A DNA stretch of 64,000 nucleotides from contig OZ237745.1 of the NCBI GenBank assembly GCA_965178125.1, positions 310,001 to 374,000 on the forward strand, given 5' to 3'. The position numbers were made by a program, and so were the translations under genes. Source of the DNA: Bilabrum cf. latius. Taxonomy: Eukaryota. A model generated the notes under the pieces. It searched no databases. It was given only the letters and a program-made list of their open reading frames with translations, and was not told the origin of the DNA. This document shows, piece by piece, positions 3,584-36,229 of this stretch; the first letter of the stretch is position 1, and each line of letters starts with the position of its first letter.

Positions 3584-6500
3584 TTACTAGTACTCTCTCG
3601 CTCTGCTGGAGCCCCCACCCCTCCCTGATCCTCCTCTACGTCGGTCCCAACTACTACTGCCGCTTTCGGCACCTCGACCACTTCTGCTTCGCCCCCGGCC
3701 TCCGCCACGAAAGGCACGCCGACCGCGCCCTCTACCACGGCCTGTTCCACTTGCAGCAGCATCGCTGGCGCCCTACACATGTTCATCTCCTGCCCCAGCG
3801 CCTCCGAGTCGACCCCTCCACCAGCTGGTTGACGGTCTGCTTGAGTGCTGGGCCCGAGGATTGCCTGCTCGGTCAATGGTAACATCCCGGTCCCCGCCTG
3901 TCCGCGCCTGTCCTGGCGATGCTTGACTGCTGTCCGAGCGCTACTGCGAAGAGCTGTGACCTGGCACCTGGTGGCTCGGGAGCATACTGTCCGTTGAGCT
4001 GTGACCTGGTACTTCGGTTGCTCTTGTCGCACCCGCAGGTTCTGACCTCGCACCAGCAACACTTGCACGGATCGAGCGGCTTCCCCGCCGGGATATCTGG
4101 CTGGACGCGCCCGCAAGAGCAGCTTTCCCCCACAGTGTCGTGGGTGCGGGCGCGGGCGCGGGCACGCGTGCAGGCGCTTGTACCCGCGCAGATGCAGATG
4201 CAGGCGCAGGCGCAGGCGCAGGCGCAGGCGTGGTGGGTGCCCGTGCATTGCTGTTTACCAGCACTGCGGTGCAGCCATCCGGGTGCTGGCTGGCGGCAGG
4301 CTCCGCAGCTTTTCTATTAGTGTCCTGCATAAACCTCGGATGCGATGATGACCTCCGACTTCGCCCAGATCCCAAAGCGCTAGGGGAGTCAGCGACAAGC
4401 TTCGGAACGCCAGCCAAGGAGCAAGCCGTGTCCACCACTGCCTCAGCCAACCGATCCATTCCCAGCGATAGCGCAATGAAGATGACGCGAAATGCGTTCA
4501 CGTGTTGCGTCAATCCTCGCTACGCTTTGTTCGGACTGCTCGATGGCGACAGCATGAATGCCGCAACCGAGTGAACGAGGGCATTTCGTAGCTGAAGCTC
4601 AGTGTTCTAGGAAGGAGAGTGGCCAGTCGACCACGACCTGCAGAGACGATCGCGACTGGATGCAGGGGCTGCAATCGGCGGGGGTCTCCAGCTTCCACCT
4701 GTACTGCCTGCACCTAAAGTGGTGTGTCTATCTCTCGGAGTGCTCGCGCCTGACTATCCCCTAGGTACCGGAGACGAAAGCGCTATGCCAGTCGAAGACG
4801 CCCGAGGTGCCGCTCGATGAGACGCTGGAGTCCCCGGAACAACGCCAGGAGAAAAGCCTGCCCGGGCAGCTCCGCCACCCGATGCCACCCCTTGTCTGTG
4901 TGCCTGCGACGAGTCTTCCGTTAGAGTACCCGAAAGGCCAGTCGAGTGCGTGGCAATCCTTAGAGTGGTAGGTGGTGCTAACCGCCGGGGGTCTGCAAGC
5001 ACGTGCTCCTTGAATGAATCCCGGAGCTGCAAAGCTAAATCCAGGTTGAAGTAGTCGTTTGGGTCCTTGACCAGCCACAGATGCGACTCCATGAGCGAGT
5101 CAGCAAACACCGCACTCACTACAGCTGCATTGTCGACACCAAACTCGCCCGTCTTGTGCAGTGCAATCTTGGCGTAGTGCACGTGTTTTCTTGCTCCTTT
5201 CTGGCTGATTTGGATCCTCACAATGCTCCTCACGGCCTTGCACATCATTGACTAGATCCGGGGCATGAGCCCGTCGTCGCCATCCGAGTCCTCGTGACCT
5301 CGGCTACCTTTCTCACGTTCAGTTTCTTTCTGCAGTGACGAATCAACGCGCCTTTCCCGCGGAGGTGTACTGGCGATTGCAATTGCACTGGGACTGCGTT
5401 CGCTCGATGCCTCTAGCAGATGATCGACATTTGGCGGAGGTTGGGATAGCAGACACTTGAGGCTCAGCGTCAGCTACGTATTGCGAGCCAGTGACTCCAG
5501 CATCCGCCGGGGGTCCTACAGGTGCATGAGAAGCAGCTTCCGGATGTCATCACGCCTACCAGCAAGCGCGTGCAGATGCTTGAATGATCTCTGCCTCATG
5601 GCAGCGTCGTCTCGGGATGCCTGCCGGGCCAGTTGATCGGGACTACTGCTCTGCCTGTGAGACTGGGCTTCGGGTGCTGCCTGTGCCTTGAGGCAGTACT
5701 TTGAGCGTGCAATCACCACTTGCGAGTCGCTTGCATTGAGCACCTCGGCGCCATTCAAGAGGTGCTCGGCATCCACAAGCAGGCCCCACTGAAGGCATTG
5801 CATAGCACACTGCGACAGCTTCTTCGTCTTGTCCAAGATCGACCTGTTCAAGAGATCGGGGTCCGTGCCAACGCCCATCACAAACGCAATGTTCTCCTAT
5901 CCGCCCTAGCTGGCCTGCACGAGCCGGCAGCTCTGCTACAGCATCAGAATATGCTGTCGGGACCAGGGGTCAAGGGAAGTGTCGCCTCCGCGGTACAGCA
6001 GGCTCTCAGGCAGGCAGCTCCGGCCGTGACCCCTGCTGGGTTGCCGAGCCAGTAAGACCGGCACCGACTACCCAACATACGCCTGCAGCGTGTGCAGCGG
6101 CAGTTCTGGCTTGTCCCACACCGGCGGTCCCCCATGTGCTTGCCGCAACCCGTTCTGCTTCCTTGGGTCGATGTTCCAAGACTGCAGCTGCGTGAGCCAC
6201 TCACCATACGCGTCTAGCAATGCTTGTTCCCCGGATCGAACGATCCATGCATTAGAGAAAAGTTTCTCGAACTTCTTCTGCATAGCGGATAGCTTGGCTG
6301 GCTACGCAGTTGACGTCATCCTTTTCTCCAAGCGGTAGTAGTTCTTCAAGGTAAGGCTGTGGGTAGGGTCTACTTGCAGTGCCTCCTTATAAATGGCCTT
6401 GCCCTTCGACAGATTGCTCCAGTTCCAGTCCTGCACGGGTCTCGGCGCCAAGTTCAGCTTGCCAATGTTGATTTGGTGGTGCATGTGCTGGTACAGGTTG

Positions 6501-9500
6501 GCCAGATCCTTCGCAATGCTCGAATGAATCGTCTCGCTGAGCCGGAGGGCGTTTCTGTAGTATGCCCGGGCGCGAATCATCATCGCAAAGGAGCGCGGGT
6601 AGTCCCAGATTGGTTCTCGATGCAGCTTCATCGCACGGTCAGCGAGATGCTTGCCAAAGTAGTAGTTGAGTCTTGCATGGGTAGGGTGCATGGCCAGCGC
6701 ATACTCGTACAGCAGCTGTGTCCCCTCCTTGGCCGACTGCGGCAAGATGGAGTCAAGCAGGAAGCACAGGTTGGAAAGGGCCTGGGCATCGCTGCCGCCC
6801 ATTGACAATGCCGTCTCGAAATCGCGGAAGGAGTCGCCTGCCAGACGCAACACCTCTGGTCCGACCTCTACCTGTTCAGCCTATTCGTCAGATTTCTTGT
6901 CCTTTGCGGTCTGTTTTGAGGCACCCTGCTTCGACGCAGCAGCTGATTTGCCTCCATCATGCCCCGACCCCTTGCTTCCAGCTGCGGATGCCTTGGTGTG
7001 CTTTCCGCTTGGCTGCGCTCGCACCTCCATTACCCGCCCACGCACGATGTCTCTCGCTTCCGGGTGCCCCGTTATATACTCCCTCAGCAGCTTGCGGCCC
7101 TTAAGCATGCTGTCCTTGTCATCATCTCGCTCGTGGATACTGGCGGCCTGCTGTCCCTTCTATCTCGCCTCCTGTTTCTCCAGGTTGCGTCGCTCCATGG
7201 CACGGATGCAGTTCACGGAGCCCTGGGTATAGTGCACCACAGGAGTGTACTTGATCTGGGGCTGAAGGGACTCCACGTACATGTATCCGAACGGATAGTT
7301 CTTGTCAAAGAAAGCTGGACCATGTCGCCGGATGTCGTTCAGCGCGCTCTGACTCAGCTTGATGCCGCAAAGGTCGCAGATGCGCTGCAGCAGGTACGGC
7401 TGCGGTAGCGACTGCCTTATCCACGCCGCAACGTTGGCAGCTGTTGCCATTTTAATCGCCTCATCCACGGCGGCCTGCTCTCTGGAGTCCTCGATGGCCT
7501 GCTCCGCATTAGTCGCGTCATCTTGTTCTTCGTCGCTGCTGCCGTTCACTTCAACCCCTACAGCACCCTCAGCACCACCCGCAGCACCCTTTACCTCGTC
7601 GAGAATGCCGCCGACGCTGGTCGATGAGTCCATCCGGGACGAGGACGGGGGCATCTCGCCATAGATCTACTCCACACCAGCGCCGTCCGTGCCCTCGGCA
7701 GCCACGCCATCAATCGTGACGGCACCGCCAAAGCCTGTGGCAACAACTTCGCCCGTGGTCTGAAGCATGTCTGAGCTGGCTGTGCTAGACTGCAATGGCG
7801 AGGACGTGCCTAACCCACGGCCTTTCGAGTCGGGATCTGGCCAGCCACTGCTAGAAGACTGCGACTCGACAGACTCTTCCCGCACCATGATTGGGGGACC
7901 ATTCGGAAAGCCGCTCAAGCTCAAGGGCGTGGAGGCTGTTGCTGCCGGGTTGCGGCTAGCAGAAACGGAGGTGGAGTCCACAGCAGCAGCCACAGGCCTG
8001 TCGAATTCCTAGCGCTGTCTGGCAGCAAGCCTTACCCCGCGCCTCGCTTCGTCCAAGTTTTTGCCCACCTGTGCCTTCGATTGGGAAGGCACGGGTGGTG
8101 GTCGCTTCGGCTGAATGAAGCTTCGGGCAAGCTCCTTCTTTCCAAGAGAAAACTTGTGGTCCATCAGCTCCAGGAGATCCTGACACCACAATGACGTCTG
8201 CGGCGAGCCCTGTGCAGGCTGATCCAGCCAAGCCCTCCCGAACACGTCGTTGAGGAACTGTTGGGCCACCTCTCTGTATGGCTCCACCAGCGGCACACTG
8301 GTGTGCTCTTCGTTACTGTCCCTGAGCCGCCGGTGGAACACTACCCTTAGACACCTAGACACCATCTCGAGCAGCAGACGTCGTCGGGCCACGTCGCAGT
8401 GCACGTCTCCATAGATCGCGCCCATGTGCCTCATGTTGGCGCCCTGGGAGTGGAGCAAGGCCTTGATGCTCCTGGGTCGGTACGCATGGCTTGCAGGTAC
8501 GAAGAAACTGCCTCCACTCGACCCAGATTCGAAGTCATCTTCGCCACCTTGCCACCCATTGCTCCCGTCTCTTCCCCCTTCGTCAGAGCCAGCGGCAGAG
8601 GATGACTGCCGAAGTACAGCGGCTGGATCCACCTCCTCGGCTCCAAACACATCCACCCTGACCTTTGGTTCACCCCAAGCGTACTTGCCCCTCTGGCCGC
8701 CCGATCCCACGTCCTTCGTGTAAAGAGACAGGCGTCCTGGGTACTCATGACTGTAAGAGGGGTGTGCCGTACTGAGTGTCTTGTGCAGCCTGCCTCTCAG
8801 GTAGGCTGGCACAAACACGCGAGTCTTCGGCTCCTCGCTCCAACCCGCACCAGGAGCGTCGATGCTCTTGCTGCCGCTCGAGCTGGACCCCCCAAGAAAT
8901 CCAGTGGCCTAGTCCATCGGATCGTCTACAGGCCGATGAGAACCTGTGCCGCCGTCTTGCAGCTCCCCGTCGCCGCTTTTAAAGGCCATGGCATACCAGT
9001 TCTCAAGCCTGAGGGGTCTCGGATTCGGCAGCTTGGCAGGTTTACCAAACGGATACGGTGACGTGTGGCTGGAGGGGCGGCCGGCTGTATTGCCCTTTTG
9101 CACGCTGCCAGAAGCTGTTGCAGCCACGGGGTCAAGCAAGGCCTGCATGTGGGTGCTGTTGGGTACCTCTGCACACTGGTCTTCAATTCCCACCCCAATG
9201 CTGTGCTGCTGCATGAGCGGCTGCGGGCCGGCATTATCACCGATGATGCCCTCCTCACTGCTCGCTGTGACCAGCCCTTCGACTGGCCCCGCATCATCCT
9301 CCGCCACGAACGGCCACACAGCCTCCCTGAATCCGCGCTGTTGAATGCAACTTTCCATGTATTCCCGTTTCTAGCCTCGCGCGCGGTTTGCGACGTGCTC
9401 AACGGCTGCGGCGTCTTTCACCGCCTCATCGTGGTCCTTCTGCCGGTCACGCTGGCGCAGCCGTGGATTGCGAGCAAACACGCTGCCATCTCCCACGCAA

Positions 9501-12500
9501 AGTCGCCATGCGGGGTGCTCACCGTGCGAGCCCGATCCCTGGCCTGCCGCGCTGCTGCTTGCAGTTGCATAACTCGCCGCGCTTGCTGCGGATGCATTGC
9601 TCTGCTGCCTCCCCATCCGGTTACGCTGCATGCGCTGCTTGGCCGCATCAGGGTCCAGCCAAGCCCTCTCACCTTCGAATCCGAGGGACTTAAGCTGCTC
9701 CTCAAACGGCGGCACCAGCGGCTTCACACCCGCCTTCTCCTCCCACTGCTGTCTGTCCGGCCTAGCCACCCGTGAAAGGCCATCAGGACCGACGATGCAC
9801 CCACAGGGGAGGACTGTAAAACGCTGCCAGCCTCCAAACCGAGGCTTTCTGGGTGCCGTAGCTTCCCAGGCCCCCTGCCAGTCTGCTGATGTCGTCGTTT
9901 CGTCCTAAGAGTCTGTTCTGGGGCCAATCCCGGGCGGGTAGATGCTGTTCATTCCCTGCTGGCTAAAGTAAACCTACGAGTCGCGGTTGGAGCCCATTGT
10001 AAACGACTGTGCCGACTGCAGCGCCCGCGAGGTCTCTGGCGCGGGTGCCAACTGGGGAACAGCCATATCCGGAGCCTAAATAGTCAGACCACCTTGCACC
10101 GGCAACGAGGTCGATTTTGTCGAGCTGGGGTGGATGGGCAGCCTGTTGCGAATCCCCGCCTGCAGTCGCTTTGAGGGAGGATTTGCAACAGAAGCTCTCC
10201 GCTTCGGATCCGCCAGTGCCTCCATGCCGGGAACAAGAGCCCCGCCACCCCTATCTCCGAACGCAACGCCCGTGCTGGTTGGTGTGGCTCCGGGCTGCGT
10301 TGTAGCGAGAGAGGGCAGGCCGCGGGCATCGGCAGCATGCTCTGCTGCAGGGGGTGCATTAAAGCCGCCTACCACTCCTAGGGTTGGCCCGTCCAGCACT
10401 GGCGTAGTTGGCTGAACGACGAACGCAGACGACGTGCCATCATCGTACGAGTACCCTGACCCCGCCCTGCCTCCTCCGGTAAAGTTCATCTCAGAGGCAA
10501 TGGCTGCACCATCCATGCCGTATCCGCCCGTCCTGCTGCCAGAGCTGGAGCCGCCACCCCGCAGGCCAAGAAGCTGCTTGATCGTGTCTCGCCTGACCAA
10601 AGGTGGGAGGGCACTCACCTCAACCGGTGTGCCGTCTGGGGCCAGCGTCGCGACCGTCCCTGAGGCAGGCAGCACCAGCGCAAAGTGGCCGAACCCTTTC
10701 CGCGACGCAGCCGACACTGCTAAAACATCGGCTGGTGAGATGTTCGAGATGAGTTCTTCTTCAGCGGCACAGATCAGGTCGATCTCCAAGGATTCTGGAT
10801 TAGATAGGGCTTGCGACATGGTGGAGTCTTGCCGACCGAGGGGCTGAGGGCCCAGCTCCTCTGTGTCTCCATCGTGATGGCGGTCATCGGCCGGCCCAAG
10901 TTCATGCGCTCCCGAATGTGTGTCAGGTCCTCCAGCGCCGCTGGCTGCTTGCAGGTTCGACGCAGCACCATGCACCTCCCCCCCATCCTCGTCCCCTTCT
11001 TCTTCATCGTCATCACTGCATGGCTCGCGACCAAAAAGCCCTGTGCCTCCAAAGCTGCCTCCCCATTGCTCGGATCCACCAGTAAGGCCAAGCTCATCGC
11101 TCGATGCGGCATCGGCATTGTCACCCTTGCCGCTAGAGCCGCGCCCTAGAGCCTCAGATGCCGTCGGGGAGTCTTCGTTGTTGCTGCCCGACCGACAGGT
11201 GTTGGAGCCGTCGTTGGTTCGGTATGTCTCAGTACTGTGTACCCGCACTAGGTTGGACGATCGAAGGTTGGCTCGGGAATCGTTGGGCTCTGGGGACACC
11301 CCTGGCGTCAGCTCCATCACGGGTGATGTGTCAACCAGCCTGGCCTTTGCTTCCTGCAGAAGCGCCCCAGGGGCCTTTCCGATGGCATCGTCGACTATCA
11401 CACCGGTCCCTTGAGGTCCAAAAATATCGACAACTTCTTTGTCCATGGCCTCGTTTGCGTGGCTACTCGGGTGGCTCCGGGCGTGCCGATCTCCCGCGCC
11501 GGCGCGGGCACCCTTTACCAACAACTGCCGAAGCCTGAACGTTGCACCAAATCTGCCGGTATCGGAGTACTTACCCAGGTCTCGGCCCTCCCACCTAGCA
11601 GGGTCCCAAGCTGTACCTGACACTGACCCGGCTCCCGACCTCGATCCAGACCCTGCGGTAGAGTCTGTGTCGTTGCGGCGCACAAATCGGGGTCCCACTC
11701 CAGCACCCTATCCGGACACAAAGAAAGGCGAGCTACCGTGCGTTGGGCTAGAGGCCTGCGTCACACCTGTACCCCAAGACACCCGGCTGTCGTCGCGGCC
11801 GACTGGGCCTGGCAGCCGAGGCGGCGGCTGCAGCCTGCCAGTCTTGGGCTGCTCTACAGTGCCTGCACCTGAGGATGCCGAGCTCATGTGCTGGGCACCT
11901 TTTGGAGGGGCATCGAACCTCCTGTGAACTGAACGAAGGTCATCCATGCCGTGCTGTGATGCAAGGTCTGCCCCATGCCGGCCATGCCGTGGGCCGAGCG
12001 TTTCGCTGTACGCCACGGCCCGGCGAACCCGAATGCCGTCGCACTCTCCAGAGAGCTCTCTAGCGAGCTACGGCAGGATGTCCTTCATCAGCTTATTGTG
12101 CAACTTTCTCACGTTCTGGTTGTGCCTGTCCGAATCTGGGCCCTACTGGAAATTGCTGAGGGCATCAGATGACAGCGGCTCGGGGCTCTGAGCCACCAGC
12201 TCTGGCCTCAACCGGCGAGTGAGGAGCCACTCGTTGCACTCGTCTCGACCCAAGCTGCGCGGGGCTGGCTCGGGCGGAAATACCCTGGCTACGTCGAGGC
12301 AATACAGCTGCTTCTGCTGGGGGTTGTAGTGGATCTCAATGTCACCAGGGCCCACCACCAGCTTGGAGAGGCGGCCGATCCTCCCATTCTGCAAGACGGG
12401 TCCACGCTGGATGTTCCCCGCCACTGGCTGCGGTGACGCCAGAACTTCCTTCGTCTGATCGTCAGTGAGGCCTACCTAGGCTGCGAGGTACCTGCCGTAC

Positions 12501-21900: not shown

Positions 21901-24900
21901 CAGGGCACACATCTTCTAGGGGGCCTAAGCATGGGCACAGGGGAAGGTAAAGTAGTCGCCGATCTGATTGCGAAACACTCCGGAGGCGTCGTACAGGCTG
22001 GATAGATAGGTGCCTGTGGGCGTGAAGGTGCCCGTGCTCCACTAGTAACAGCCCATCTGCGAGTCGCCGCCCGCCTCTGCCTGGTACGGCATGCACATAC
22101 GGTCGCTGCCCGCGGGCTCGGGGTAGTGCTTGTCATTGCTGGAGGCACTGCCGCCGGTGCCAGGGAGCAGGTCGCCCACCAGGAGTGCAGTGTGGGTGGA
22201 GGCTGGGGTCGCCATGTCCACGCAGTAGTATTCCTTCCCGGTGGCAGGATCCACCTCGGCAGCCATGCACATTCTGTAGCCAACATCCATAGCGACGAGT
22301 CCATCAGCATTCGTGGAGTTGCCGATGATGATGAGCTGCTCCCCAGCCGGCAGCCGTTGGTCCCAGCACGCGACCTTGTACTCCTTGGCGAGTCCCCCGC
22401 TCCTCTCGAACTGCAGAGACATGCACACCACGTCGCTCTGAAGCCACACAGGAATGCCTTTGCTGTTGTCAGTAGTGCGCTCGTAGCCTTCGGGCCATGT
22501 CCCTTCGCCCAGCAGGTTGGCGCCGAGCCTTTGCGACTATCCCGTTGTCGAATCAAAGACGCCCAAGTGCTGCGCACTGGCAGTACCCACGAGAGAATCG
22601 GGTACATCAACCCATGCAGCAACATACTTGCCGTCAGGGCTTCCAACGAAGCGTTTCTCTCCGGGAAAGGACCCGCCCGAGGGCCCGTCTTTTTCGTTGA
22701 ATGACTGAATGGGGGCTCGCACGCCTTCCAGCGTCCCCGCAGGGACAAAAGCCGTTTCGAAGCCCTACTCAGGAATATTTATAGTGAGGTAGTACCCGGC
22801 GCCGTGAAAGGTCCGCCATTATTGGCATTCCGAGTCCCAAAATCGCGACCATCGTGCCTTTAGGCTCCCATTGCTGAGAACTGGACCAATTTCTTGGGTG
22901 AATTTACATTGCAAAAATATCTTATGTAACATTTAAATGTAATGCAGTCCCAACGGAGCCATGCAATTCGCAGCATTAGACTGAAAACGAGTCGTGCTTG
23001 CGACCACCATTTTTGGCGACCACCCCCAGCCCAAGATTTTACTCGCTGGCAAGGGGTGCCAGATGCACGCACCGTGTGCCGCCAAAAAAGCTTTTCTTTG
23101 GTTTCTGTTGGTATTTAGTAGTTAAAAACATATTTGACAACATGTTATCAGGTCACTAGGCTCATTCATTAGCAATCCAGCGAAATTTGGCTGCCATTCC
23201 AACACACGTCGGTTCAAACGGTTCCAAAATTTGCAGGGCATTTATACCTTAGCGCAATAGACTTTTAACACACTGGCACTGCTGTTGAGGTAAACGGGTA
23301 TTGAATACAATATCATGTGGAGGATTACGTCTACGTTTGCGAGAACAACGAGTGGGAGGCGATAAAGTCGCTCCAGCGGCGCGTCCGAAGTTGGGTCTCG
23401 GGGTGCAAGTGCCCCTGGTGGGAGTGCCTCGTCTCGGCGTCACGAGCAGAAATCCGCCAAACTCAGGATCATCGATCAAAGTGAGTACGGTATTGTTATG
23501 GTTGGTGGAATTGCATGGGCTCTAGCCGGCTAGTTTCGGGGTACCGTACAATCTGCCGCAGAGGCACCGGAAGCCACGAATGTGGCACTCATTGACAGTA
23601 TCCATGCATCCGTGGTATGCTTGACGAGGTGTTGGTTGAATAATCATTTCATGGTGATGTGGACGAGCTTAAATAATTATACAGAGGTATAATAGGGCCA
23701 CAATCGGGCTTGCGTCCTGTGCAGAATTGGCCATGCACGGTGTTGCTGCAAGGCCACTGATATCAGCCTTCATCGCTTATTTGTGCTTAGCCTTCGTAGA
23801 AGCATCTCAGTCAATCCCAAAATTCTCATTGGAGTCTTGTAAACCTATATCTAGCGTTTCGGTTGCTAGCAAGTAGTCAGGAAGCAGCCCGTCCCATGCG
23901 GCCAGTTCGAGCCGACGCGCTGGGTTCAAGCGTGAACGGCAAGAGGACAATGCAAATAAATCGACAAAAGATGATGATTTACGTGATTTGTTGGGCGAAG
24001 CATAGGCCAGCGATGATGATATGGACTATGTCGGCGATTCAGACGAGGACGAGCAGGTATCCAGTCGGTCTGCAACTTTGAGCCGGCCTCAAGTGCAGCA
24101 TCGTAGGAGGCAGTAGGCTCACCAAGCAAAGCGGCGCAGAATAGAGCAATATGAAAGTATGTTTCCTATGGACAAAATTGCATCGTTGGTTGACGAGCCT
24201 GAATATAGGTACTTCGTGAATGACCGGGTTGTGATTGGCGGTGATGGGATCCCGATCGCTCGCACAGCGGCTACTTATGTGGCTGCTACTGAGTATGTCA
24301 AAGGCTGGATGACGGCTCATCATGAACAACCAATATCTCCAATACGCATTCTGTGCTCGCTGGTGCCTCTCGATATTGCATTTCCGTGGCGAGGCACTGC
24401 AGCGGCAGAGGTAGCTGGCCAGGCAGCCGGCCAGCCGGCAGCGACCAACCAATGGACATGCCAGTTGCGATGATGTTCCTGGCCGTGGCATTGACTCTGT
24501 CTCTCATCCGACCCCGGATACCTTTAGAATAACTGCAATCAAAGTAGTTCCTGGTGCGCATGAAAGACGATATCGTAGTGCAAGACTGGAATCGGTTCCA
24601 TCGAAACTTGTCTTTCGCCGGGAGGTTGCAGGAGGCTCCGGCACCCCTGCTGGCGGAGGAGCGCGCCACAATGAGGCTAGGGAGTGTGGGCAGTCCTCGC
24701 GAGCGGGTACTCATAGAATATCTATCAGGCATGCTAGATACAGTTTCAGAGTACTTTCGTGCGGCTACTTCGAGCCCAAAGAGCATCGCCGTTGATGAGA
24801 TGATGGTGATGGCGTACGGCCGAAATCGGGCATGTGTCATCATGCCGAACAAGCCCACATCGCATGGCTTTAAGCTATGGGCAGCTGCACGAAAAGACGG

Positions 24901-26874
24901 GTATGGGTACCATTTGGATCTAGCAACATCTGTTGCCGATGATACACGATAGTACAGGGGGAAGGCTGAGTACTCGTATAAGGTAGCAACCGGTAGCGGT
25001 GCCGCTGCCGGGTAGCTGACCCGGATGGACCTGCAAACAGCAGCTGTTGCGTCAAAGGCAATGGACAAAAACTTGAATGGGGGCCTTCTAGCGGTGGATA
25101 ACTACTTTAAATCGGCTCCACTGTGTGATTGGGCCACCAGCAAAGGCCTTCGGGTTGTTGGCACGCTTCGCCAAGGCAAAGTGAGCGGTGAGCTGTACCA
25201 CGCGATTGGCAAGCTGAACAGACGAACCCCAGGCGAACGCGGGCAGGCTGTGAAGCGCGCTCCTCCTGGGTCCAGCAAAGTCTCTTCATGTCATGTAATA
25301 GCTGATGATGTTTTTGATGCGAGTGAGCTTCCTGCGGGATCGCTGCTGGCCGAAGAGGACCTTGGCAGTCGGGGCCTGTTGAGCCCTGGCCAGACAGTAG
25401 CCTTTGACTCGCCAGTTGATTCAGCTTCTGGGATGCAAGTTTTTGGATACTGTGACCGCGCATCATTTCTTATGGCTTCTAACATTCCTACGAAGTACTT
25501 TGTTCGGTTGGTAAAGAAGCTACGGAAAGATGGTGGCGAACTGAGTGTGGTGAACGCGCCCCTCGTGTCCGTCCTCTACAACAAGTACATGGGGGGTGTG
25601 CATCTAGCTGACAAGTTCCGGACGCAACTTTCGCTAACAAATGCATTCCAGGGAAAGAATAGGGCATACTTAAGAGTGTGGGAAGGTTTAATGGAGCAAG
25701 TTATCGTCAATACGTACATCATCTGGGTCAACTTGGAGGCACGTCGACTGCTACGCCACGGACCCAGTCGTCGGCAAGCTGCTGGAGCTAGCAACGAATC
25801 CGTTCAGGAACAGGTTTAGCACATGGTGCTGCATCGACAAGCTCATGTTATGTTTGTGCAGCTGTTGTATGACGAATTGATGCGTCCTTACCGACATGCA
25901 CGTGCAGGAACTCGCGGTGCTGCAACCTCAGCTGGGATGCGTGCGGAGGCGACCCCCGGGAACCTTGGATGTAGAAAGCAGCACACGGTAGCTACGCTGC
26001 TGGGCTCGCTCCATTTGATTGGAAAGGAGTAGTTGCAAGCAGGACTGATTAAATTTCTCAGTAGCGGACGATCAAAGAACCGTCGAGTGGGGTGCAGCGC
26101 CAAGTGCAAGGACTCCAGATGCAGCAAGCGGCAGCATCATTAGTCAGTTTCTTCCTATAAAGTGTGTTCACGCTGCTGCAAGTTCATTTGTGGGGATTGT
26201 AAAGAATCTATGTATCATCTGGAAACAGGATTTGGCTGTGATGTGGATATAGTTGATATTAATGCCAAGTAAATGGATGCGCAAGAATCGGGTCACGAAG
26301 CACGTCATTCATGGCAGGTCCACATTCGATTCAATATCTTGTAAACCGTTCGGTAACTTTTTCGCGCTAAGACTTATATATAATATAACTACCAATTAAT
26401 TCAAAAAAGCTTGTTTATTTCTCAAGCATGCCTGCTTGGACAAACTTCTGCAGTATCAAAGTAGCCCTTCCTGAAAATCGAGCGTATGGTTTCATGACCA
26501 CCAAGTATACTATTCTCGCAAGCTCATCAATGAGTAACTCTCGCAATCGATAGTTAACTTATACAATTTTCAATATTTTGATATTATTTTAGGATTACTT
26601 GAATGGTACGCGAGAATCGGTAAGGTGAACTCATGGTACCGATATCGGCGATACCGGTCGGTCGGCCAAATCCGACCTTTCACGGCGCCGGGTACCCTCC
26701 TTGCACTGGCACGATCTTGTTTCCGTAGCTGTAATCGATCGGAGTCGTGTTGATATCGTAGACCCTCAAGTCGGCGAACCATCGGGTCTCGGAAGTGGGC
26801 AACGTGTAGTCGATCCGTGTTAGGGATTCGCCGTTAATGCACGGAATAAGCGCGATTGCCGCGAGAAGCGCCAT
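18916..26874 (-). CDS. Type I cell-surface protein (signal peptide, beta-propeller-like region, P/S/T linker, Cys-rich module, SEA-like domain, TM helix), interrupted by a transposon at 22796-26691
   Basis: N-terminus MALLAAIALIPCING at 26874 rejoins in frame (QGGY|YLTINIP) after removing the element plus one GTAC (3,900 bp). Downstream ORFs share the frame, broken only by TAG, and end TGA 18916. Motifs LLVGDLLPGTGG / ISDINPGTGG, TCLDGETSGSESDIDCG..C..C, TM VGVIVTIVVLVWAVAAAAGYYF, ETDAKG repeats in the tail. Confidence 0.75.
22796..26691 (+). mobile_element. piggyBac-like DNA transposon, 3,896 bp, 18-bp perfect TIRs, GTAC target-site duplication
   Basis: ccggcgccgtgaaaggtc (22796-22813) is the exact reverse complement of 26674-26691; GTAC flanks both sides (22792-22795, 26692-26695); AT-richer interior carrying a piggyBac-type transposase. 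Confidence 0.9.
23733..26272 (+). pseudogene. Degenerate piggyBac-family (PGBD-like) transposase
   Basis: Motifs SIAVDEMMV, MPNKPTSHGFKLW, AVDNYF, GTLR, YNKYMGGVHLAD and a C-terminal Cys-rich domain ending TAA 26270-26272. Apparent frameshift near 24450-24470, in-frame TAA at 24530, and the third catalytic Asp (GGVD) replaced by His. 5' end approximate. Confidence 0.8.
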
Positions 26875-27354
26875 CACAGATGCTCAACTCTTTTGACTCA
26901 AGCTTCGCGTTGCTATATGAATCTGTATCAGCGGCCGGCAGGCTTCATGATAGATGCGCGCTACTTTCCGACTTTAGGCGTAAGGTTCGTTCGTTCGATC
27001 GTTCGTTTGAGAACAATCACAAACTATAAGAGCTCCCCCGACACGTGTCACGGGTGATGCGCAGGACCACTCAAGGATCCTCGACTTATATCTTGAAGAG
27101 ATCGAGGAGGGCTGCAGCGAAGGCCAAACGGGCGCTCGTCAGGGCGGTTTGGGACGACTTTGCCAGCCCGGCTGTTGGGGCAGCCGGAAAAGAACAACCT
27201 CGCCACGGCGGTCGCCAATGTCAAGGCAGGGTTGGACCGGAACGGGCAGTAGGACGGGGTGCCGGCAGCGGGCACCGGAGGGAACGTGAACGCTGACGCT
27301 CCCCAGGGGCAGAAGGGTCCTCAGGATGGAGCTTTGGTGGTTTAGGCCATTGCA

Positions 27355-27436
27355 GCTGAAGTGTGATGCCTAGTAGGTCCTGGGCCTTCGTTCCAGATGT
27401 GGTTTTGCGGTAGCGTGCCATTTTGAGTTGAACACA
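27355..27436. repeat. Dispersed repeat A, copy 2
   Basis: Similar to 3460-3535. Confidence 0.65.
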
Positions 27437-28040
27437 ATATATGGGTCAGACTGGCCGGACGAGAGCGCACTACAGATACGACGAAGAGAGAGCGGAACAG
27501 CAACAGGAAGCCACAGATGTGGCACCTGCAGGTGTAGTGGCACATGCCGCAGCACTCGCAGCAGTCGTTGAACAGGCCGAATCTGAAGAAGCCGACCAGC
27601 AGCAGAGAGAAATGCCGGTTGCACTCAATCCGCAGAGCACAGCCCAAGGTGGAGCGGCAGCAGCTGCTGGTCCTGGTGTAGCACCTCCTCAAGAGATCGA
27701 GCCAAAGGATCTAGTAGGTCCAGCTGCACCACAACCTCACCACAGCGGGGTATATGTGTTGCTGGATCATCCTGCCGATCAAAAAAGGTCAGAGTGCTCC
27801 ACCTCGCTCTCTTGTCGCATACGGCTGTCGCGCCGCATCCGACTTTTCTGTATCTGCCGATCCTTCCGATGACGGCATTCGGATAGGGGATTGTAGCCTC
27901 TTCTAGACTACCCTCCATCCTATCCCGAACCCCTCCGGGCCCCACCGCCCCCTGTCCACATTCCTGCCCTGTCTGCGCCTCCCGCTTCATCCACCCCGTC
28001 CACTTTGTCCACTTTTCCTCTATTTTCCCCACCCGGCTTC

Positions 28041-28138
28041 TCCTTCACCTCAGTCACGCCACACGACTTGTCGATTCGCCCGAGCGCTGTGCCCAGCGCG
28101 CGACCTAAGACTTAGAGGTGGAAGCCCCTCACACACAA
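28041..28138. repeat. Dispersed repeat B, copy 1 (inverted relative to copy 2)
   Basis: Reverse complement matches 39855-39951 (ttgtgtgtgaggggcttccac..ctaag..aggtcgcgcgctgggcacagcgct..gcga.tcgacaagtcgtgtggc); weaker purine-rich similarity extends beyond. Confidence 0.8.
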
Positions 28139-28363
28139 GAGATTCAGGTTGGACGAAGGTCCGGTGCGAGATCTCGAAGGCGGCGATTCTGAGCCCATTT
28201 AGACCCATGACTATGCTGTTACCCGGAGCTTTCCCGGAACGTTCTTGATCGACCGGAGCTTGAGGCATAATCTCGAATCAACTGCACCAAAGGGCAACCA
28301 CAATAAAACAGCGCAAGGAGATTGTGAATAGGATCGATTTCCAGTAGATTTGCATTGTGCATA

Positions 28364-31300
28364 ATGTAGGTAAGAAGATGGTATGATTTCGATCTGCAAT
28401 TACTGGTAGTACTGCTCGATTTCTGGAGCACTCAGTATCTCCGCAACTAGCTATGAGCAGCCCATGTATGCGATTGATACTGTGATTATTTTTCGCAGAC
28501 CACCCGGATATCGTATGATGATAGTAGTTGGAAGCCATCTGAGCTCCCACTGCAAGGCTTCTGGCCGTAGATGTGGGCAATGCTGCGTCTTGCAGTTCTG
28601 CGAAAGCTCCGCGCACCGGCAGCTACCTTGGTTTCGACAGTGTTTCCCGTCATTATCTTCCTGGGGATATCCGCGTCCATGAATTTTTAGTTTCCAGAGT
28701 AGACTGAGGAAGAATCTGTCCCTTTGAGCACTGAATCGCACTGGGCTGCGGCCGCTGTAGCCCAAGCGGTTGGTTCAGCACTCAACAGGTCGGCAGCCGA
28801 CCAGAGTTTCAGGATCACCGACAGCGAAGCCATGCTGGCAGCCCTACATCCTCTAGTAGGAGTTTTTGACCAAACTGTTACCTCCGGCAGTACTCCTGTG
28901 GATCCAGGCATGCAGGGCATACTGTCCTCCAGCCTCTTCCCCGCCCTGCCCGCCGGCGCATCACTGGGTGCTCTCTCGAGGAATGTCGGTGGCATCGGCC
29001 AAGACTTTGAGAGGGCATTCAACCAGTCTTTACAGCTGCAGCAAGCAGGCCAGGACTCCCTACCGTTTGGCTCTCTCTCTTCGCCCCCCTACAAGTGGCC
29101 CGGACCCGATGGCTCCCCCATCGTGCTGGTCGCACCCATGACAGACAGGAAGGACATCGCGCGACTCGCGCCGGGGTCCGCAGCGACGCATCCAGATCCA
29201 GACGGGTATCAGCCTTCATCAGCTGCAAGCGGGTCAGGCGATGCAGGAAGCTCCCTCAGTGATGCTCAGCTTGCCGCACTGCAGGCAGCCTCGAGGAGAT
29301 GTGCTGCCACCGTGGCACAGGCACTGGGTGCCAGTGTGGATCGCGCGAGAGCAAGCCGGGATGCGGCTCTCGAGTAGTGCCAGCAAGCGATGGCTACGGG
29401 TGGTGCTGCTCCAAGTGGCGAATGCTCGGCAGTCTTTCGGTCTCAGCCACTGCCCCGCGGCCCAGACACGGTCGTTCTTGTGGGTAGCCTACCTGCGGCC
29501 CGTGACATGGCAGAAGGACTCAAGACCATTCGAGGCAGACTGCTGAGAGAAGGCGCTGTGCTGACCATTGTAGGAGTGGGTCCTTGCAGCGGCGGGGCAC
29601 TGCTTGCTGGCCCGTCTTCCGTGGGCAACCTAAGCTTGGTTGTCAACGCGTCGGTCGACACTGACAGCCTGCCAACTGGGGGCCAATGCCCCAATTCAAT
29701 TCGGGAGAGTGCTGGATCAGGTATTAGCTCCAGTGACGACGAATATATGCGAGTGGAGAGTGCCTGCTGGCCAACTAGTCCCGAGGCAGCCGCAGATCTT
29801 GCTCTAGCAAAACATGCCGGTATGTCGCCTGCAGAGGCTGATTCCATGCGATACGCTACCAGTATGGCTTGGAATGCTATCGGTGGGAACGATACACACG
29901 CACTTGTAAACACCACGCGAGCAGTGCACTCGCTGTGCTCAGGAAACAGCAGCGCGTGGAGCCAGCAGAAGGCAGACATCTGCAGCTCGTTGGTGCAGAG
30001 CCTTGCGTCACAGGAGACCGGGCATGCATCCACCTCTGACGGTATCCAGCAGAGCACAGCGGCAGCCCCCATGCTACCCATCCGTCTGTATATCAACGAG
30101 TCCTTTGGGTATTCGCTTGATCTGACGAGCATCGCCGACCGGCCAGACGCGCGGCTGCCTGAGCTAGACTGGAAGCAGCAGCAAGGAACACGGCAGTTTG
30201 CTGCTTCATACACGACCGGGGCCTTGCAGGTCCTTCAATGGATCGGCAGTGAGCATTTCCGAGCAATAACTCGTTGGGTCACTGCTGGCAGTGGTGGAGA
30301 TGCAAGTGCCAGGGCACAGCGACTGTTTGATGCTGTGCAGCCACACAAGGTCATGGACGGCCTTGATGGGGCAAGTTCGATCGGCTTTGTTCGGATGCCA
30401 TCTGTAATGCAAGGATCTGGCGGATCCAAAGACCTGTACGAGCCTCCACAATCGATGGAGATATCTCTAGGACTACCCTTTGCCTTTGCGATTTAGGCCT
30501 TCCTTGTGTCCCTGATCATAAGCCTCGCGAAAGAGGCAAGCGAGGGGCACCGTGATCACTTAGCAGTGTTGGGGCTATCATCGTCTGCGTATCACTTTAG
30601 CTGGCTGGTTGTCAGTCTCTTGCATGGGCTGCTCCCGGCTGCGCTCTGTGCAGGAGGTGCCATGCTGACCAACGTTGTGGGCGGAGCCGGTTTCTTCCTT
30701 ATTTTCGTGCTGTTCGCGTGCTTCGTGTTCGCCGGGTTGGCATTCAACGCCTTCCTGATCACGGCACTGCAGAAGACGGCAAACCCACAGGCAGTCGGCC
30801 CGGCACTTGGCCTGCTGCCAATCTTCTTCATCGGGGTGTGGGCCGCCATCGTGCAGCTGACTGATGGCCCCGTTGCGAGAACGATCGTGTCCGTGCTGCT
30901 TCCCTATGGCGGGGTCTTCTCGGGCATGTACATTTTCGTGATCATTCCCGAGTCCGAGGGCGGAAGAGCACCCACCTGGGGGGATTTCTGGAGCTACGAT
31001 GAAGGCGAGACTCTGCTGGGATATGCCGTGGTGAGCATGCTCGCCAGCGGGGTGTTGTATACGGCTGGGTCGCTCATTATCAGCCACTTCTGGTACGTGG
31101 CCAATGTATCCCCGGAGGTGAATACCGCCAGCAGCGCCTCGTCTGATGGTGGTGCCACCGGTAAGGCCCTGCTTGGCCGCGACGACGCGCTGTTTGAAGC
31201 TGTACCGCGCTCTCAAGACAAAGACTGCTTGCGGGTGAAAGGACTGTCGAAGGCCTACAGCGCGGGCGGAACACCATGGGTGCTCTCTAGCGCAGCAAAT

Positions 31301-34300
31301 GGAGCGGCTCGAGCCATCGGATCCAGCGCCCAATTTGGATCCATGAGCGAGCAGCACCTGAGCCAGGCGCAGCGCGATGCCCTGAAGCGATTTTGCGACG
31401 GAACAGTGACCGATGCAGAGGTGAGGCAGTTCAATGATGCGCTGCATGCGTCTCAGCTGGGACTCGGGGACTGCTTTGGCGAATACTCGAACCGGAAGCT
31501 CGCCGTGGCTGGTGTGGATTTACAGCTGCGACGCGGCGAGATCACTGCACTGCTGGGGCACAACGGGAGCGGCAAGACCACCACATAGAAGATCATCACA
31601 GGCCAGCTGCCTCCCACTGCAGGTGAGATCAGCTATTTTGGCGTGCGCATGTCTGCATAGAATGCTAGTCAGATCCGAAGGGAGCTCGGCGTGTGTCCTC
31701 AGCAAAACGTGGTGTTCGACGAGATGACCGCAGCTGAGCACCTGCAGTTCATTGCCGAGATCAAGGGGCCCGAATGGGTCGTACGGGCAGACCCGAAGGT
31801 GAAACAAGCGCAGAAGGCCGTCCGAGAAGGCACGGCGGGACACTCCACCGGTGGAGAGAATGCTCATCAGGCCCTGCAAAAGGCCATCCAAGAGGCCCTG
31901 GAGAAAGAAATCGAGCACAGGCTGCACCAAGTCACCTTATCAGATCGTGATGACGGCTACACGAAGCTGGTGGGCACTTTTAGCGGCGGGATGAAACGGA
32001 AGCTGTGCATCGCCATGGCGCTGCTCGGTGGTCCCGAGGTGCTGACCATCGATGAGGGCACGAGCGGAGTGGATCCTGCCAGCAAGCGCAAGCTGTGGGA
32101 CCTGCTGCTTCGCGAGAAGCATGGCCGCGTGGTGTTGATCACCACGCATGCCATGGATGAGGCGGAGCAGATCAGCAACCGTGTGACGATCATGAGACGC
32201 GGTAGGCTGTTTGCGGAGGGTAAGCCGTTGTTCCTTCGCGTGAACCCCAAGTTCTCCGAGGGCTTCACGCTGTCTGTGAGACTGCCTAAGCTGGACGGTG
32301 CCGGCAAGGTGGGAGGACCTGGCGAGAGGCACGCAGGCGCTGCAACTAGCCGTGACAGCGCGGTGGGTGCCCGATTTAAGAATGTGGACGAGTTGTCAAG
32401 CATGGGCTGGTCGTAGTTAGACCGTGCTGTCCGAAGAGCGCTGCCATCGGCACGTCCTGTAGAGCGTTCGAAGTCGGGTGCTACTGCGTCTATGTCCTCT
32501 TAGAAGGGCTCTTCTAGAGACTACGTGCTTCCTTTCGAGGACAAAGCTGAATTCCCGGCTCTGTTCAGCATGCTGGAGAAGTCGATTCAGACCTCAAGTG
32601 GAGGAACTTCTTCGTCCAGCCTCACCTGCATTGATGGGTCGAACGAACTGGTGCTTCCCGCAGGCACTGACCTGCGCCTGCAGCACACCACCCTGGAGCA
32701 AGTATTCGTTCGAGTCTCGGAGATGTCAGAGGTGCCACACATCAACGATGACGGTGGCAAAGGTGATGCGGCACATCGGGGTACATATACAGCGAGCCGG
32801 TCTGCCAATGGTATTGCACCAGCCCCACCATCCGGCTCAATGACAGAGTCCCAGGTTGCACCCTCTTCCCTGGACCAGCCAAACCACGGCTTCGACAGCA
32901 AGCCAGCAGCTGGCTGGAGCAAAGAGCAGCATGAGGTCGTTGAACAGGCAGGCATGAGCTCATCAGGCGACAGCCACTCACCAGTGCTCAGGCACATCAA
33001 GGCCAACCTGAATCGAACCAGGCAGTACCAGGCGATGCTGTACATCAGGTACCTGAAGTACACGACTCAGTTCGAGCTGATGTTTTGGATCGTGCTGTTC
33101 CCATCGCTGATGCTGATAAGTGGGATTCTCATGATGTGGCTGCTCAACAGCCCCGGCCAAGAGCCAACGACGATCACCATCGACCCGTTCTAGGCACATG
33201 GCGGCGCTGGGTCTGGTGTGCTGCTGGCTCCAGTGGGGACAAGTCTAGGACAGCAGAGCGAGCTGTCATTGGACACCACCAGGGATCTGGTCGCGTGGTA
33301 CAGCCAGTCGGGACAGCCAACGGAGGAGGGCCTGCTTGGGAACGTCTCTGCAAGTGGCTTGGAGGAGCTGCAGCGCTATGCACGCGGAGCTGAGTCTGCG
33401 GCAATCGACCCTTTGCTTCTCCGGCCCGAAGAAGGGCTTGCCCCATTCTCCGCCATGCTCTCGGCATGCGGGCTACTCGGGCTGACTGGCCGGGGAGTCG
33501 GGACTGGAGACACGTCTACTTTCGCTGCATCGGCTGCAGGAATCGGTTTGCCCTCCTGGGGCTGCCAGGCCCTGGCCCTGCAGCTGTCGCTTGCCGGCGA
33601 GTGGAATGATGTGACGACCCCGGCTGCAAATGTCACTGCAAGAGGAGCGTCTGCGGGCAGCTGGCTCCAGGTGATCAACCAGGACACCGTGGATGAGACA
33701 GGCACTCAGCAGCAGCCCATGCTGGCGATGGTCCCAAGCGCCGACAAGGTACTGCTGAATTCTGCAATCCGATTCACGTTGAGCTCACCTCTGCGCCCAG
33801 GCAACCTGACAGAGGACAACGCTTCCCAGCTGCAGCCGTTCGGCCTGAGCCTCGATGCACCCGCGAGGCTCGGTACAGGCATCATGTGGGACGGCAACAG
33901 CTCTGATATAAATGTTTGGGATCGCCAGCGCGCACTTGCCTTCAACGCATCTTTGCCATTCGTTCTGTTTGCTGCAGTGCTTGCCGAACACCACGCGGCG
34001 GTATCGATTGCGCTGGGTGCGTTTCAGCAGCACGGGATGCGGCTGGAGATCGCCCAGGAGGAGCAGGTGTTCGACTTAAGCTCGCTTCAGAGCTTCGTCA
34101 TCCCGCTTCTGATCGGCGGCGCTTTCACGAGTCTGCTGCAATCGGGCGCGTTTTTGCTTGTAGCAGACCAGGAGAAAGGGATCATTCAGAAACTGAAGTC
34201 ACTCGGGCTGGACGGCACGTCGTATTGGACAGGCCTTTACCTCGGCGACTTGCTGCAAACCCTCCCAGCCATAGTTGTGCTGGTCATTAGCATTCTCGCA

Positions 34301-36229
34301 TTTGACCTCAGTGTGCTTGGCGGGCCCAAGCTGCTTGGCTTGGTGGTGCTGCTGGTGCTTTACAGCATCTCTGTGTCATCCCTTTTCTACCTCATGGTGA
34401 CCTTCATCCCGAAGCAAGAGATTGCGGGTGGAGTCATCCCGATCGTGAATCTCGTGTTCGGGCTGGGTCTCTTCTCTGCGTTCCAGCTGCTCGCTGGTGA
34501 AGATGCTGATACTGAGCTGCTTGACACGATCGCCGATTCTCTGCTGTGGATGCCGATATTCGGATTTTACCGCGGTGTGGAGGTGCTGGTGTCTTTGGAC
34601 GACTCCGTGCGATCGCTTGGTACCTTGGACCCGACAGTGGCGCATGTGTTCCGTTGGGACATTGGTCTTGCCAAGGTGATCGTTGGTCAGATATGCGCGG
34701 CACTGGCTTGTGCCTTGGCATTGGTGGTCGTGTGGAACTGGGAGATGATCCATGCCTCCAACGATCGCTCGCGGGTTGCTGAGGTGGTCAACTGGGTGAG
34801 AACTGCCGGCGACAAGCAACAAGAGGCTGCGGAGAGCTCGGCAGCGATCGAGCGAATCAAGAAGGACAAGGGAACCATTGCAATCCAAGACGCCTGGCGG
34901 GTTGTGCAGTCAGGCGAGGAGTCCGCCCATGACGAGTCCACCTCGACAAGGCCTGCAGCTGGGGCCGCCCGTGACTCGAACGGAATCCAAGGTCCGCAGT
35001 TGGGGTCGCACGACAAGGTGATTTTGCAGGGATGCAACCTAGCGGTAAAGCGAGGAGAAGCTGTCAGCGTGGTGGGGCCTTCTGGTGCAGGCAAGACCAC
35101 CATGATCAACCTGCTCAGCGGCTAGGGACACCCGCAAGCAGGCGAGGCCTGGATCGATGGGGCGCCCGTGGGGTCGGAGTCCAACCGCGGCAGCCTCGGG
35201 ATGTGCCCGCAGGACGATCCATTGTACAACACGGTGACTCCTCGCCAGCACTTCCACATCTTTGCCATGATCAAGGGGATGCCCACTGAGGAGGTGGAGG
35301 CAACAATCGAGGCCCTTGCCAAGCCCATCGATCTAGAGCAGCACCTGGACACTCCCGCAGATCAGCTGTCCGGGGGCAACAAGAGGAAGCTGGGCCTGGC
35401 GTCGGCGTTATTTGGCCTACCGCCGGCGATCGTGGCCGACGAGGTGTCGACAGGGGTGGATCCAGGAGCGCGCAGGGGCATCTGGGGGCTGATCGCTCGG
35501 TGCAGGCAGGGCTCCAGCATGGTGTGGTCGACCCACTCCATGGAGGAGGCTGAGGCCACGGGAGACCGCGTGCTGATCATGGCCAAGGGGAAGACGCTGG
35601 CCCTTGATACCCCTCAGAGGCTGGTGCAAACGCTGGGTCGCGGCCTGCTTGTGGATGTGGAGGTAGCCGAGCAAACTGCGGCTAGCTCGGGCTAGTCGAC
35701 TGGTAGCTCGGGTGCAGCTGGCGCGGATGGTAGAGCTACAGATTCCCTAGGGGACGAATCCTTGTCGCAAGCGGAGAAGGGGCACGGTGCCGTGGCACTC
35801 GCAGGGCAGCCGGGGGGTGGTGGTCCTCGCACCGCCAACATGACGCAGCGTGTAGATGACGTTCTGTCCGAAATACGCAGGCGAGTCGAGCAGCTTACAC
35901 CACCACGGATGGAAGAGCATATGTCAAATGGGTCTGCGAGGGATGGCGCCGGGTCGAACGGCAGCCCTCCCAGCGGTGCGTCCTGGCAGGTTGAGGTGCT
36001 GGAGAGGACTGGCGGATCCCTGCGTCTGCTGATCCAGGGCAAGCATGCTCAACCGGATGGAGCGAGTGCATCAGGGCATGAACAGTCACTTTGCTCCGAT
36101 ACAATACCGCTCTCGGCGGCCTTTGATCTCTTGCTGCGGGTGCAGCAGAGCCAACCTGCCGTGACGCATTTCTCGATCGGACAGCCAACGCTTGAGCAGG
36201 TGTTCTTGCGGCTGGTCAAGGAGGAATGA
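28364..36229 (+). CDS. Full-size ABCA-subfamily transporter, copy 1 (~2,578 aa; exons 28364-28369 and 28499-36229)
   Basis: All fragments 28724-36229 share one frame, broken only by TAG; ends TGA. TMD-NBD-TMD-NBD with GHNGSGKTT, GVCPQ, FSGGMKRKL, IDEGTSGVD, TTHAMDEAE, TTLEQVF; GPSGAGKTT, GMCPQ, LSGGNKRKL, ADEVSTGVD, STHSMEEAE, QPTLEQVFL. The 6-nt first exon plus GTAAGA donor is mirrored in copy 2. Confidence 0.9.

Follow-up and report, generated by a model that had tools for sequence, protein, structure and literature searches.

Does a transposon of the piggyBac type necessarily insert at TTAA? piggyBac is a major tool for DNA insertion and seamless removal, and its reach is set by TTAA. The question was raised by a 64 000 nt stretch of Bilabrum cf. 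latius DNA (contig OZ237745.1, positions 310,001–374,000 of the forward strand; hereafter the window, with all positions numbered from its first letter), in which a preliminary description made from the letters alone had placed a piggyBac-like transposon at 22792–26695 with a target duplication of GTAC instead. The window copy was found to be inserted at a TA-centred GTAC, not at TTAA, inside a membrane-protein gene, to which it added exactly 3900 nt. It is probably a recent but already defective copy of a multicopy piggyBac-superfamily transposon in a TAG-recoded eukaryote, with an NTAN target duplication that is biased to GTAC.

The element ends were analysed by direct reading and with a repeat finder. 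The arms at 22792–22813 and 26674–26695 are 22 nt each and 100% complementary (GTACCCGGCGCCGTGAAAGGTC); at both ends they consist of GTAC outermost followed by an 18-nt terminal inverted repeat (TIR) of sequence CCGGCGCCGTGAAAGGTC. The left GTAC occupies 22792–22795, the left TIR 22796–22813 (plus strand), the right TIR 26674–26691 (minus strand; repeat finder and 18-mer scan) and the right GTAC 26692–26695, and the element body between the two GTACs (22796–26691, plus strand) is 3896 nt in length, or 3904 nt including both of them. A scan of the 64-kb window with the 18-mer, allowing up to three mismatches, returned two sites only, the element's two ends, and two or more matches were obtained in 0 of 100 shuffles. 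The perfect 18-bp TIRs with GTAC on both sides that had been described were confirmed in this way. No subterminal repeats common to both ends were found beyond the 22 nt. The terminal letters (CC(C)GGCGCC... on the left, ...GGCGCCGG(G) on the right) are those of short TIRs starting with C, as in piggyBac elements.

The direct repeat at the borders is really 6 nt in length (GTACCC, 22792–22797 and 26692–26697), its border being blurred beyond the 4 nt first noted because the host flank happens to run on with CC. Arithmetic allows three symmetric registers: GTAC duplicated (4 bp) and ends of CC...GG; TA duplicated (2 bp) and ends of CCC...GGG (the equivalent register named in the preliminary description, which is present); or nothing duplicated. 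All three predict an identical empty site. The left GTAC is accordingly either the left half of a 4-bp duplication or a flanking G, the TA and the element's first C. The sole copy read at both ends has the same 4-mer on its two sides (GTAC/GTAC; other copies were read at one end each), whereas the 4-bp word abutting CCC/GGG differs between its sides (AGTA on the left, TACC on the right). A 6-bp GTACCC duplication was rejected; it would give asymmetric ends, and the repeat contigs described below include the CC at 22796–22797.

The element lies within a gene. A minus-strand open reading frame (ORF) from 22818 down to 18916 begins inside the left TIR, and a short ORF, which begins at a Met codon (26874–26872) with what resembles a signal peptide, reads into the right TIR. 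On removal of the element and one GTAC, a continuous frame of 1355 codons is obtained, with the insertion after about codon 62. Its upstream part (26696–26874, minus strand, from the ORF reading) comprises the start codon and signal-peptide-like N-terminus in about 59 codons, and its downstream part (18916–22795, minus strand, from the ORF and a Pfam scan) contains nine TAG codons and codes for a membrane protein that has a hydrophobic helix at its C-terminus and no Pfam family. An interpretation of the element as a spliced intron was rejected: GT stands at its start on the sense strand of the gene, with no AG at the far boundary.

The stretch was compared with public sequencing runs, all in the form of contigs: X1 and X4 (organism A), X5 (organism B) and X7 (labelled as a different organism). 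No run listed as containing the stretch is recorded as RNA. Record 25 of X7 (3787 nt) aligns with 20806–22791 (231 differing letters, six gaps) and then with 26692–26894 (24 differing letters). It skips exactly 3900 nt, joining 22791 to 26692, and is approximately 88% identical to the host gene. This contig is the empty site in the homologous gene of a relative, an ancestral or orthologous site and not the product of an excision, and the window holds a true insertion. The empty site that both registers had been said to share was thus both predicted and seen. Because the relative's site keeps one short word, a single pre-existing copy, GTAC cannot be explained simply as the outermost letters of a 22-nt TIR without a duplication, which was the objection that the preliminary description had raised against itself. 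Only three letters fit either side at the X7 joint, compared with six shared in the window, so that the relative reads GTA followed by a base other than C; the fourth letter of this word falls on the third position of a Gly codon, where the change is synonymous. A contig with joined flanks was listed for none of X1, X4 and X5, and contigs can drop rare forms.

Under the standard code, only short ORFs are present inside the element, and these pieces give borderline DDE_Tnp_1_7 matches. The main frame is broken by TAG alone; with TAG taken as a residue it extends over 579 codons (24533–26272, plus strand) with six TAG and a TAA stop. When TAG was read as Gln, this frame matched Pfam family DDE_Tnp_1_7 (PF13843) with E 1.7e-10 (41.2 bits, cut-off 22.4). 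A HMMER search of 1.84 billion representatives gave 254 homologous proteins at E ≤ 1e-3; of these, four full-length ones were tested (P0010, P0011, P0012 and P0016) and matched DDE_Tnp_1_7 with E-values from 2e-66 to 2e-94. No transposase was found by phmmer with this protein against PDB sequences, and a fold search was needed. An AlphaFold (AF2) model was calculated from 63 aligned sequences, with a mean predicted local distance difference test score (pLDDT) of 69.1. The first Foldseek match was the piggyBac strand-transfer complex (6x67_C, E 4.8e-10), the second and third were piggyBat (9c0f_C/D) and Tn5 came next; the template-modelling (TM) scores of the fold matches were low (0.32–0.40), as expected for a multidomain model. 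The element belongs to the piggyBac superfamily by sequence and by fold, and its proposed piggyBac-like identity is borne out.

An N-terminal part of the transposase, with three TAG as sense and an acidic stretch, was placed by alignment with P0147 in another frame (23673–24473, plus strand). At the other end, the last ~60 residues of the translation (26090–26269, plus strand) carry a Cys/His pattern resembling the consensus tail of the family alignment, with no Pfam match and a pLDDT below 65. A protein-guided scan of viral contigs gave no relatives. Five distant piggyBac-like coding matches (L063–L067; 30–37% identity) were seen in genome contigs, one of them 2.8 Mb in length, filed as archaeal or bacterial metagenome-assembled genomes under the labels Nitrosopumilaceae, Nitrospirales, Poribacteria and Sedimenticola; these contigs may be eukaryotic host DNA that was wrongly binned.

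Reading TAG as sense opens very long ORFs across the window, every large one of which contains TAG (9 to 37 per ORF); examples lie at 3584–14926 (minus strand), 28478–36229 (plus strand), 48188–56011 (minus strand) and 56770–62361 (minus strand). The largest has 3780 codons, 37 TAG and a CLU domain, and is followed by ORFs of 2583 and 2607 codons (two ABCA transporters), 1863, 1300 and 847 codons. The stop was TGA in seven and TAA in three of ten ORFs checked. TAG is a sense codon of the organism rather than a sign of decay of the element, because the large host ORFs use it and end in TGA or TAA. With nine TAG in 845 codons, the transposase resembles the host ORFs in TAG density (37 in 3780 codons in the largest of them). 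Two database fragments predicted with the standard code, P0001 and P0003, have an end or a start that coincides exactly with TAG positions 429 and 500, from which it follows that these TAGs are common to related copies.

In protein alignments, the counterpart of TAG was Gln in P0002 and P0006, Arg once and Lys once. Between the two ABCA paralogues, TAG stood opposite TAG eight times, CAG twice, GAG twice and ACC once, and against human ABCA3 it stood opposite Leu once and Glu once. Gln, the most frequent counterpart in these alignments, is our best guess for the residue; the code would then be NCBI table 15, known in a few protists (PMC11687900). No tRNA gene was found within the 64-kb window. 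The earlier advice to translate TAG as Gln stands in so far as TAG must be a residue, the frame being otherwise closed, with Gln itself only the best guess. The in-frame TAGs show a transposon tied to the variant code of its host, which should limit its spread to standard-code organisms.

Three defects were identified in the transposase gene of the window copy. Catalytic Asp 1 (residue 88 of the 579-codon frame, codon 24794–24796, plus strand) lies in a column with D in 57 of 57 aligned homologues and catalytic Asp 2 (residue 189, codon 25097–25099, plus strand) in one with D in 57 of 58; both are kept. The third catalytic position is occupied by His 357 (CAT, 25601–25603, plus strand), where all 59 aligned homologues have D, among them P0001, a database fragment that shares 91% identity with the window copy. 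Judged by these columns, the triad of three Asp residues is a feature of the family and not of the window copy. In addition, P0147, a continuous protein from a related family, aligns in frame +3 at 24300–24398 and then in frame +2 from 24383, which places a 1-nt frameshift zone at 24398–24440 (plus strand); the X7 contig has one additional C behind 24433, which would restore the frame. Finally, an in-frame TAA at 24530–24532 (plus strand), in the conserved N-terminal region, stands opposite an Arg of P0147 and is a nonsense codon of the window copy. As far as can be told from its reading frames, this copy cannot produce an active transposase. It is not the intact copy that had been hoped for and, being triply defective, is not a tool candidate. 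Because its own gene carries the frameshift, the TAA and the His at the third Asp position, movement of this copy would need a transposase in trans.

The ends of other copies were taken from contig break points and from the loose ends listed, with 142 further loose-end rows and 454 contig pieces lying outside the listing. The contigs were built from 31-mers and the break points were read on that basis. The depth in the flanks was 47.4 (X1) and 108 (X4); summed over the element it was several times higher (262–447 in X1, 245–1787 in X4), depth summed over contigs not being equal to copy number. The unique flank contigs end at 22822 and, on the right, begin at 26665 (in X1 at unique depth), each including GTAC and 27 nt of the element, and the high-depth repeat contigs have their first letter exactly at 22796 in each of X1, X4 and X5. 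Interior repeat contigs differed from the window copy at 3 of 318, 4 of 279, 11 of 819 and 33 of 1134 letters. Together, the depths, the contig limits and these differences indicate a family of several copies that are ~1–3% apart.

Among the right ends listed for X4, two contigs depart from the window after 26694 (GTA) and two after 26695 (GTAC). Two X5 contigs depart after 26695, with a consensus as in an X4 row; these X5 rows probably represent the same loci as the X4 rows and so are not independent. GTA follows the TIR in all six right-end rows listed, and is followed by C in four of them. On the left, one X1 contig of single-copy depth has other sequence joined directly to 22792, giving GTAC before the left TIR. 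TTAA was present at none of these seven other end rows, so that copies flanked by TTAA, which would have spoken against the preliminary description, do not appear among the ends listed. By the flank contig end at 22822, a further copy is implied in which the base preceding TACCCGG is not G; likewise, the repeat contigs starting at 22796 imply a copy in which the base immediately preceding CCGG is not C. All visible ends have TA, with G and C at the outer positions in most, though not all, cases.

In X5, the element contigs (22796–26611) have nearly the majority form (one difference in 494 letters and four in 1099) and the host flanks are almost without cover; the X5 depth is very low and its uncovered stretches are uninformative. 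This pattern could reflect either low depth of a close relative or an element shared between organisms. Two further searches were made. An exact scan of metagenome contigs with the 18-nt TIR gave 62 loci with one match each, which were rejected as chance matches, no more than 22 nt being shared with the element. A search for flanks of other copies as proteins reading through the right TIR, using the 71-codon ORF at 26538–26753 as the query, gave no candidate.

For one copy, insertion at a non-TTAA, TA-centred site is well documented; for several others there are indications of it, with outer positions around the TA that appear to be usually, not always, G...C. In piggyBac, a 4-bp offset is dictated by the geometry of the active sites (PMC7351741). 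Staggered integration over 4 bp, of the piggyBac type, would yield an NTAN duplication, here with a bias to GTAC, and the transposase would come from a clade in which the TTAA requirement has been relaxed or changed. The 4-bp NTAN register with CC...GG ends is favoured because of this mandated offset, the identical 4-mers of the complete copy and the repeat boundary at 22796.

The strongest alternative, which we consider rather unlikely yet a serious candidate, is that the element has classical CCC...GGG ends with TA alone duplicated or shared; the G preceding this TA on the left and the C following it on the right would be ordinary host bases of this locus. It is favoured because the six right-end rows listed (four from X4, two from X5) all retain the G and read GGG-TA, whereas the outer base that follows is not constant, being different in two of them. 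The flank contig end at 22822, with its implied copy lacking G before TACCCGG, points the same way, CCC/GGG termini are typical of the piggyBac superfamily (PMC5381638), and a GTAC host context is not improbable: among the NTAN words of the window, GTAC ranks first in number (203 of 1841 TA sites, 11%) and TTAA last (57 of 1841, 3.1%). Against it, a 2-bp duplication conflicts with the 4-bp offset of the piggyBac transposase architecture (PMC7351741), the repeat contigs of X1, X4 and X5 begin at 22796 and not at 22793–22795, so that the third C is not invariant, and the word abutting CCC/GGG is not duplicated in the window copy. One could speculate about a mixed mechanism capable of producing the pattern seen, in which only the central TA of the donor- and target-derived 4-nt overhangs would pair and the inner mismatch would be resolved either way; pairing of only the central TA has been proposed for PiggyMac junctions (PMC3408717).

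That the family is strictly GTAC-specific and the deviating flanks are later mutations is improbable. GTAC does stand on both sides of the window copy and beside the TIR in one X1, two X4 and two X5 contigs, and it is palindromic, so that a G0:C3 contact could, extrapolating from PMC7351741, replace the T0:A3 contact said there to be required at TTAA. Two of the four X4 right ends listed nevertheless diverge after GTA, the break points imply variation at both outer positions, and copies only ~1–3% apart have diverged too little for half of the flanks to have mutated. Of the altered or relaxed specificity (GTAC or NTAN) put forward in the preliminary description, the non-TTAA, TA-centred site therefore survives, with NTAN or TA as the better fit, and a family-wide GTAC rule does not.

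We regard it as very improbable that the family normally uses TTAA and that the window copy is a rare off-target integration. Rare non-TTAA flanks are on record for single copies in a survey of 157 piggyBac-like elements (PMC5381638), and further loose ends exist beyond those listed; however, none of the seven other end rows listed has TTAA, all of them keep TA with G or C beside it as in the window copy, and TTAA is the least frequent NTAN word of the window. Equally hard to credit is a germline-limited sequence resembling a ciliate internal eliminated sequence (IES), precisely removed by a domesticated piggyBac excisase so that the host gene stays functional: the element does lie inside a coding frame, is bounded by TA and restores the frame if removed with one TA, and PiggyMac cuts leave 4-nt overhangs centred on TA (PMC3408717), but the flanks are joined in no contig of the organism A runs X1 and X4, the sole joined form comes from a different organism at 88% identity, uninterrupted ORFs of 1863–3780 codons at 50–63% G+C are unlike a heavily IES-ridden germline and nothing marks the host as a ciliate, so that programmed elimination of this kind is unsupported.

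Several points weigh against a recent, multicopy family with a GTAC-biased NTAN duplication. As GTAC is the commonest NTAN word, a single GTAC site is weak evidence of specificity. The G beside the TIR is kept in 6/6 right-end rows listed and the outer C in only 4/6, an asymmetry that a GGG end with a TA duplication would explain at least as well as a symmetric NTAN, if not better. Only one copy was read with both ends, and ends that diverge directly after the TIR, for example at TTAA, may sit among the 142 further loose-end rows. The runs X1–X4 may include the data from which the window was assembled. The frame-restoring base at 24433 is missing from the majority contigs of X1, X4 and X5, and no intact transposase gene was seen in the contigs examined.

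A possible protein basis for a changed target rule was looked for in the omega loop. In Trichoplusia ni piggyBac, R275, Y283 and K290 of this loop contact the TTAA hairpin and target, and D268 is the first catalytic Asp (PMC7351741); the three residues lie at offsets of 7, 15 and 22 from D268. At offsets +7, +15 and +22, the homologues have K in 35 of 57, Y in 38 of 57 (aromatic in 49) and K in 38 of 57 (basic in 50), respectively. The window protein and P0002, which is 60% identical to it, have Y, I and S at these offsets from the first Asp. T. ni piggyBac is absent by name from the alignment, and some rows have insertions in the omega-loop stretch; if the numbering maps without gaps, Y, I and S would be the equivalents of R275, Y283 and K290 and might account for the altered target rule.

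Going one step further, the element may represent a natural piggyBac lineage that no longer needs TTAA and inserts at TA-centred tetranucleotides with a preference for GTAC, with all three of its omega-loop contacts replaced, as a mobile, free-living counterpart of the relaxed cutting around TA by the domesticated PiggyMac. Such a lineage would have arisen in a GC-rich, TAG-recoded eukaryote in which TTAA is the rarest NTAN word. We put this forward tentatively, as a reading about which opinion could nearly be divided evenly. The structural basis of the strict TTAA choice of piggyBac has been explained (PMC7351741). If a natural GTAC/NTAN clade exists, it would show which protein changes loosen or switch this specificity, provide a starting point for transposases suited to GC-rich genomes and stand, in evolutionary terms, between transposons bound to TTAA and the TA-centred excisase PiggyMac.

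Other features of the window were recorded. Just upstream of the start of the interrupted gene, the segments 26872–27400 and 27664–28191 reach very high summed contig depths in each of the four runs (maximum 3076 in X1 and 13225 in X4, compared with flank depths of 47 and 108) and represent an abundant repeat, for which no clear terminal inverted repeats were found. The two ABCA-type transporter genes (~2600 codons each) are in inverted orientation, at 28478–36229 (plus strand) and 48188–56011 (minus strand), and their products are 90% identical (2332 of 2580 aligned positions). Two secreted-looking MACPF (perforin-like) proteins are encoded on the minus strand at 15187–16518 (E 6.7e-13) and 36540–38825 (E 1.2e-19). 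An open frame of at least 404 codons with four TAG (62787–63998, plus strand) runs off the window and has no Pfam family at E ≤ 1e-3.

Compared with known systems, the element shares with Tc1/mariner transposons the TA beside its ends, but differs from them in transposase family and fold; Mos1 and Metnase appeared among the fold matches only at E 0.02–0.4, and the element is not placed in Tc1/mariner. In the survey of 157 piggyBac-like elements, the target was TTAA, and five single copies with other words, mostly unequal on the two sides, were ascribed to mutation (PMC5381638). Some of these (Yabusame1, AcePBLE and others) resemble the present element in having non-TTAA words beside piggyBac-type ends (PMC5381638). 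They are single copies, whereas here a TA-centred pattern flanked by G/C recurs in several copies, and the empty site of one copy has been verified. In the literature searched, to which the supplements of PMC5381638 with the exceptional flanks did not belong, no piggyBac family was found to be described as following a non-TTAA rule.

The closest likeness in protein and ends is to piggyBac (T. ni IFP2) and piggyBat: a DDE_Tnp_1_7 transposase with 6x67 and 9c0f as its best fold matches, a putative Cys-rich tail, the first two catalytic Asp residues kept and the third present in a 91%-identical relative of the window copy, short TIRs starting with CC(C), TA at the target centre and an empty site consistent with a seamless pre-insertion state. 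Unlike them, the window element is flanked by GTAC (or TA) and not by TTAA, has an 18-nt TIR and uses TAG as sense in its ORF; the TTAA duplication characteristic of the superfamily is absent, with GTAC on both sides and GTA(N) in the relative's empty site. With PiggyMac and the Paramecium IESs it has in common a position inside a coding frame and a nuclease geometry of the piggyBac type, where, of a 4-nt word, the central TA alone is constant (PMC3408717); in contrast to an IES, it is mobile and multicopy and carries TIRs and a transposase gene of its own.

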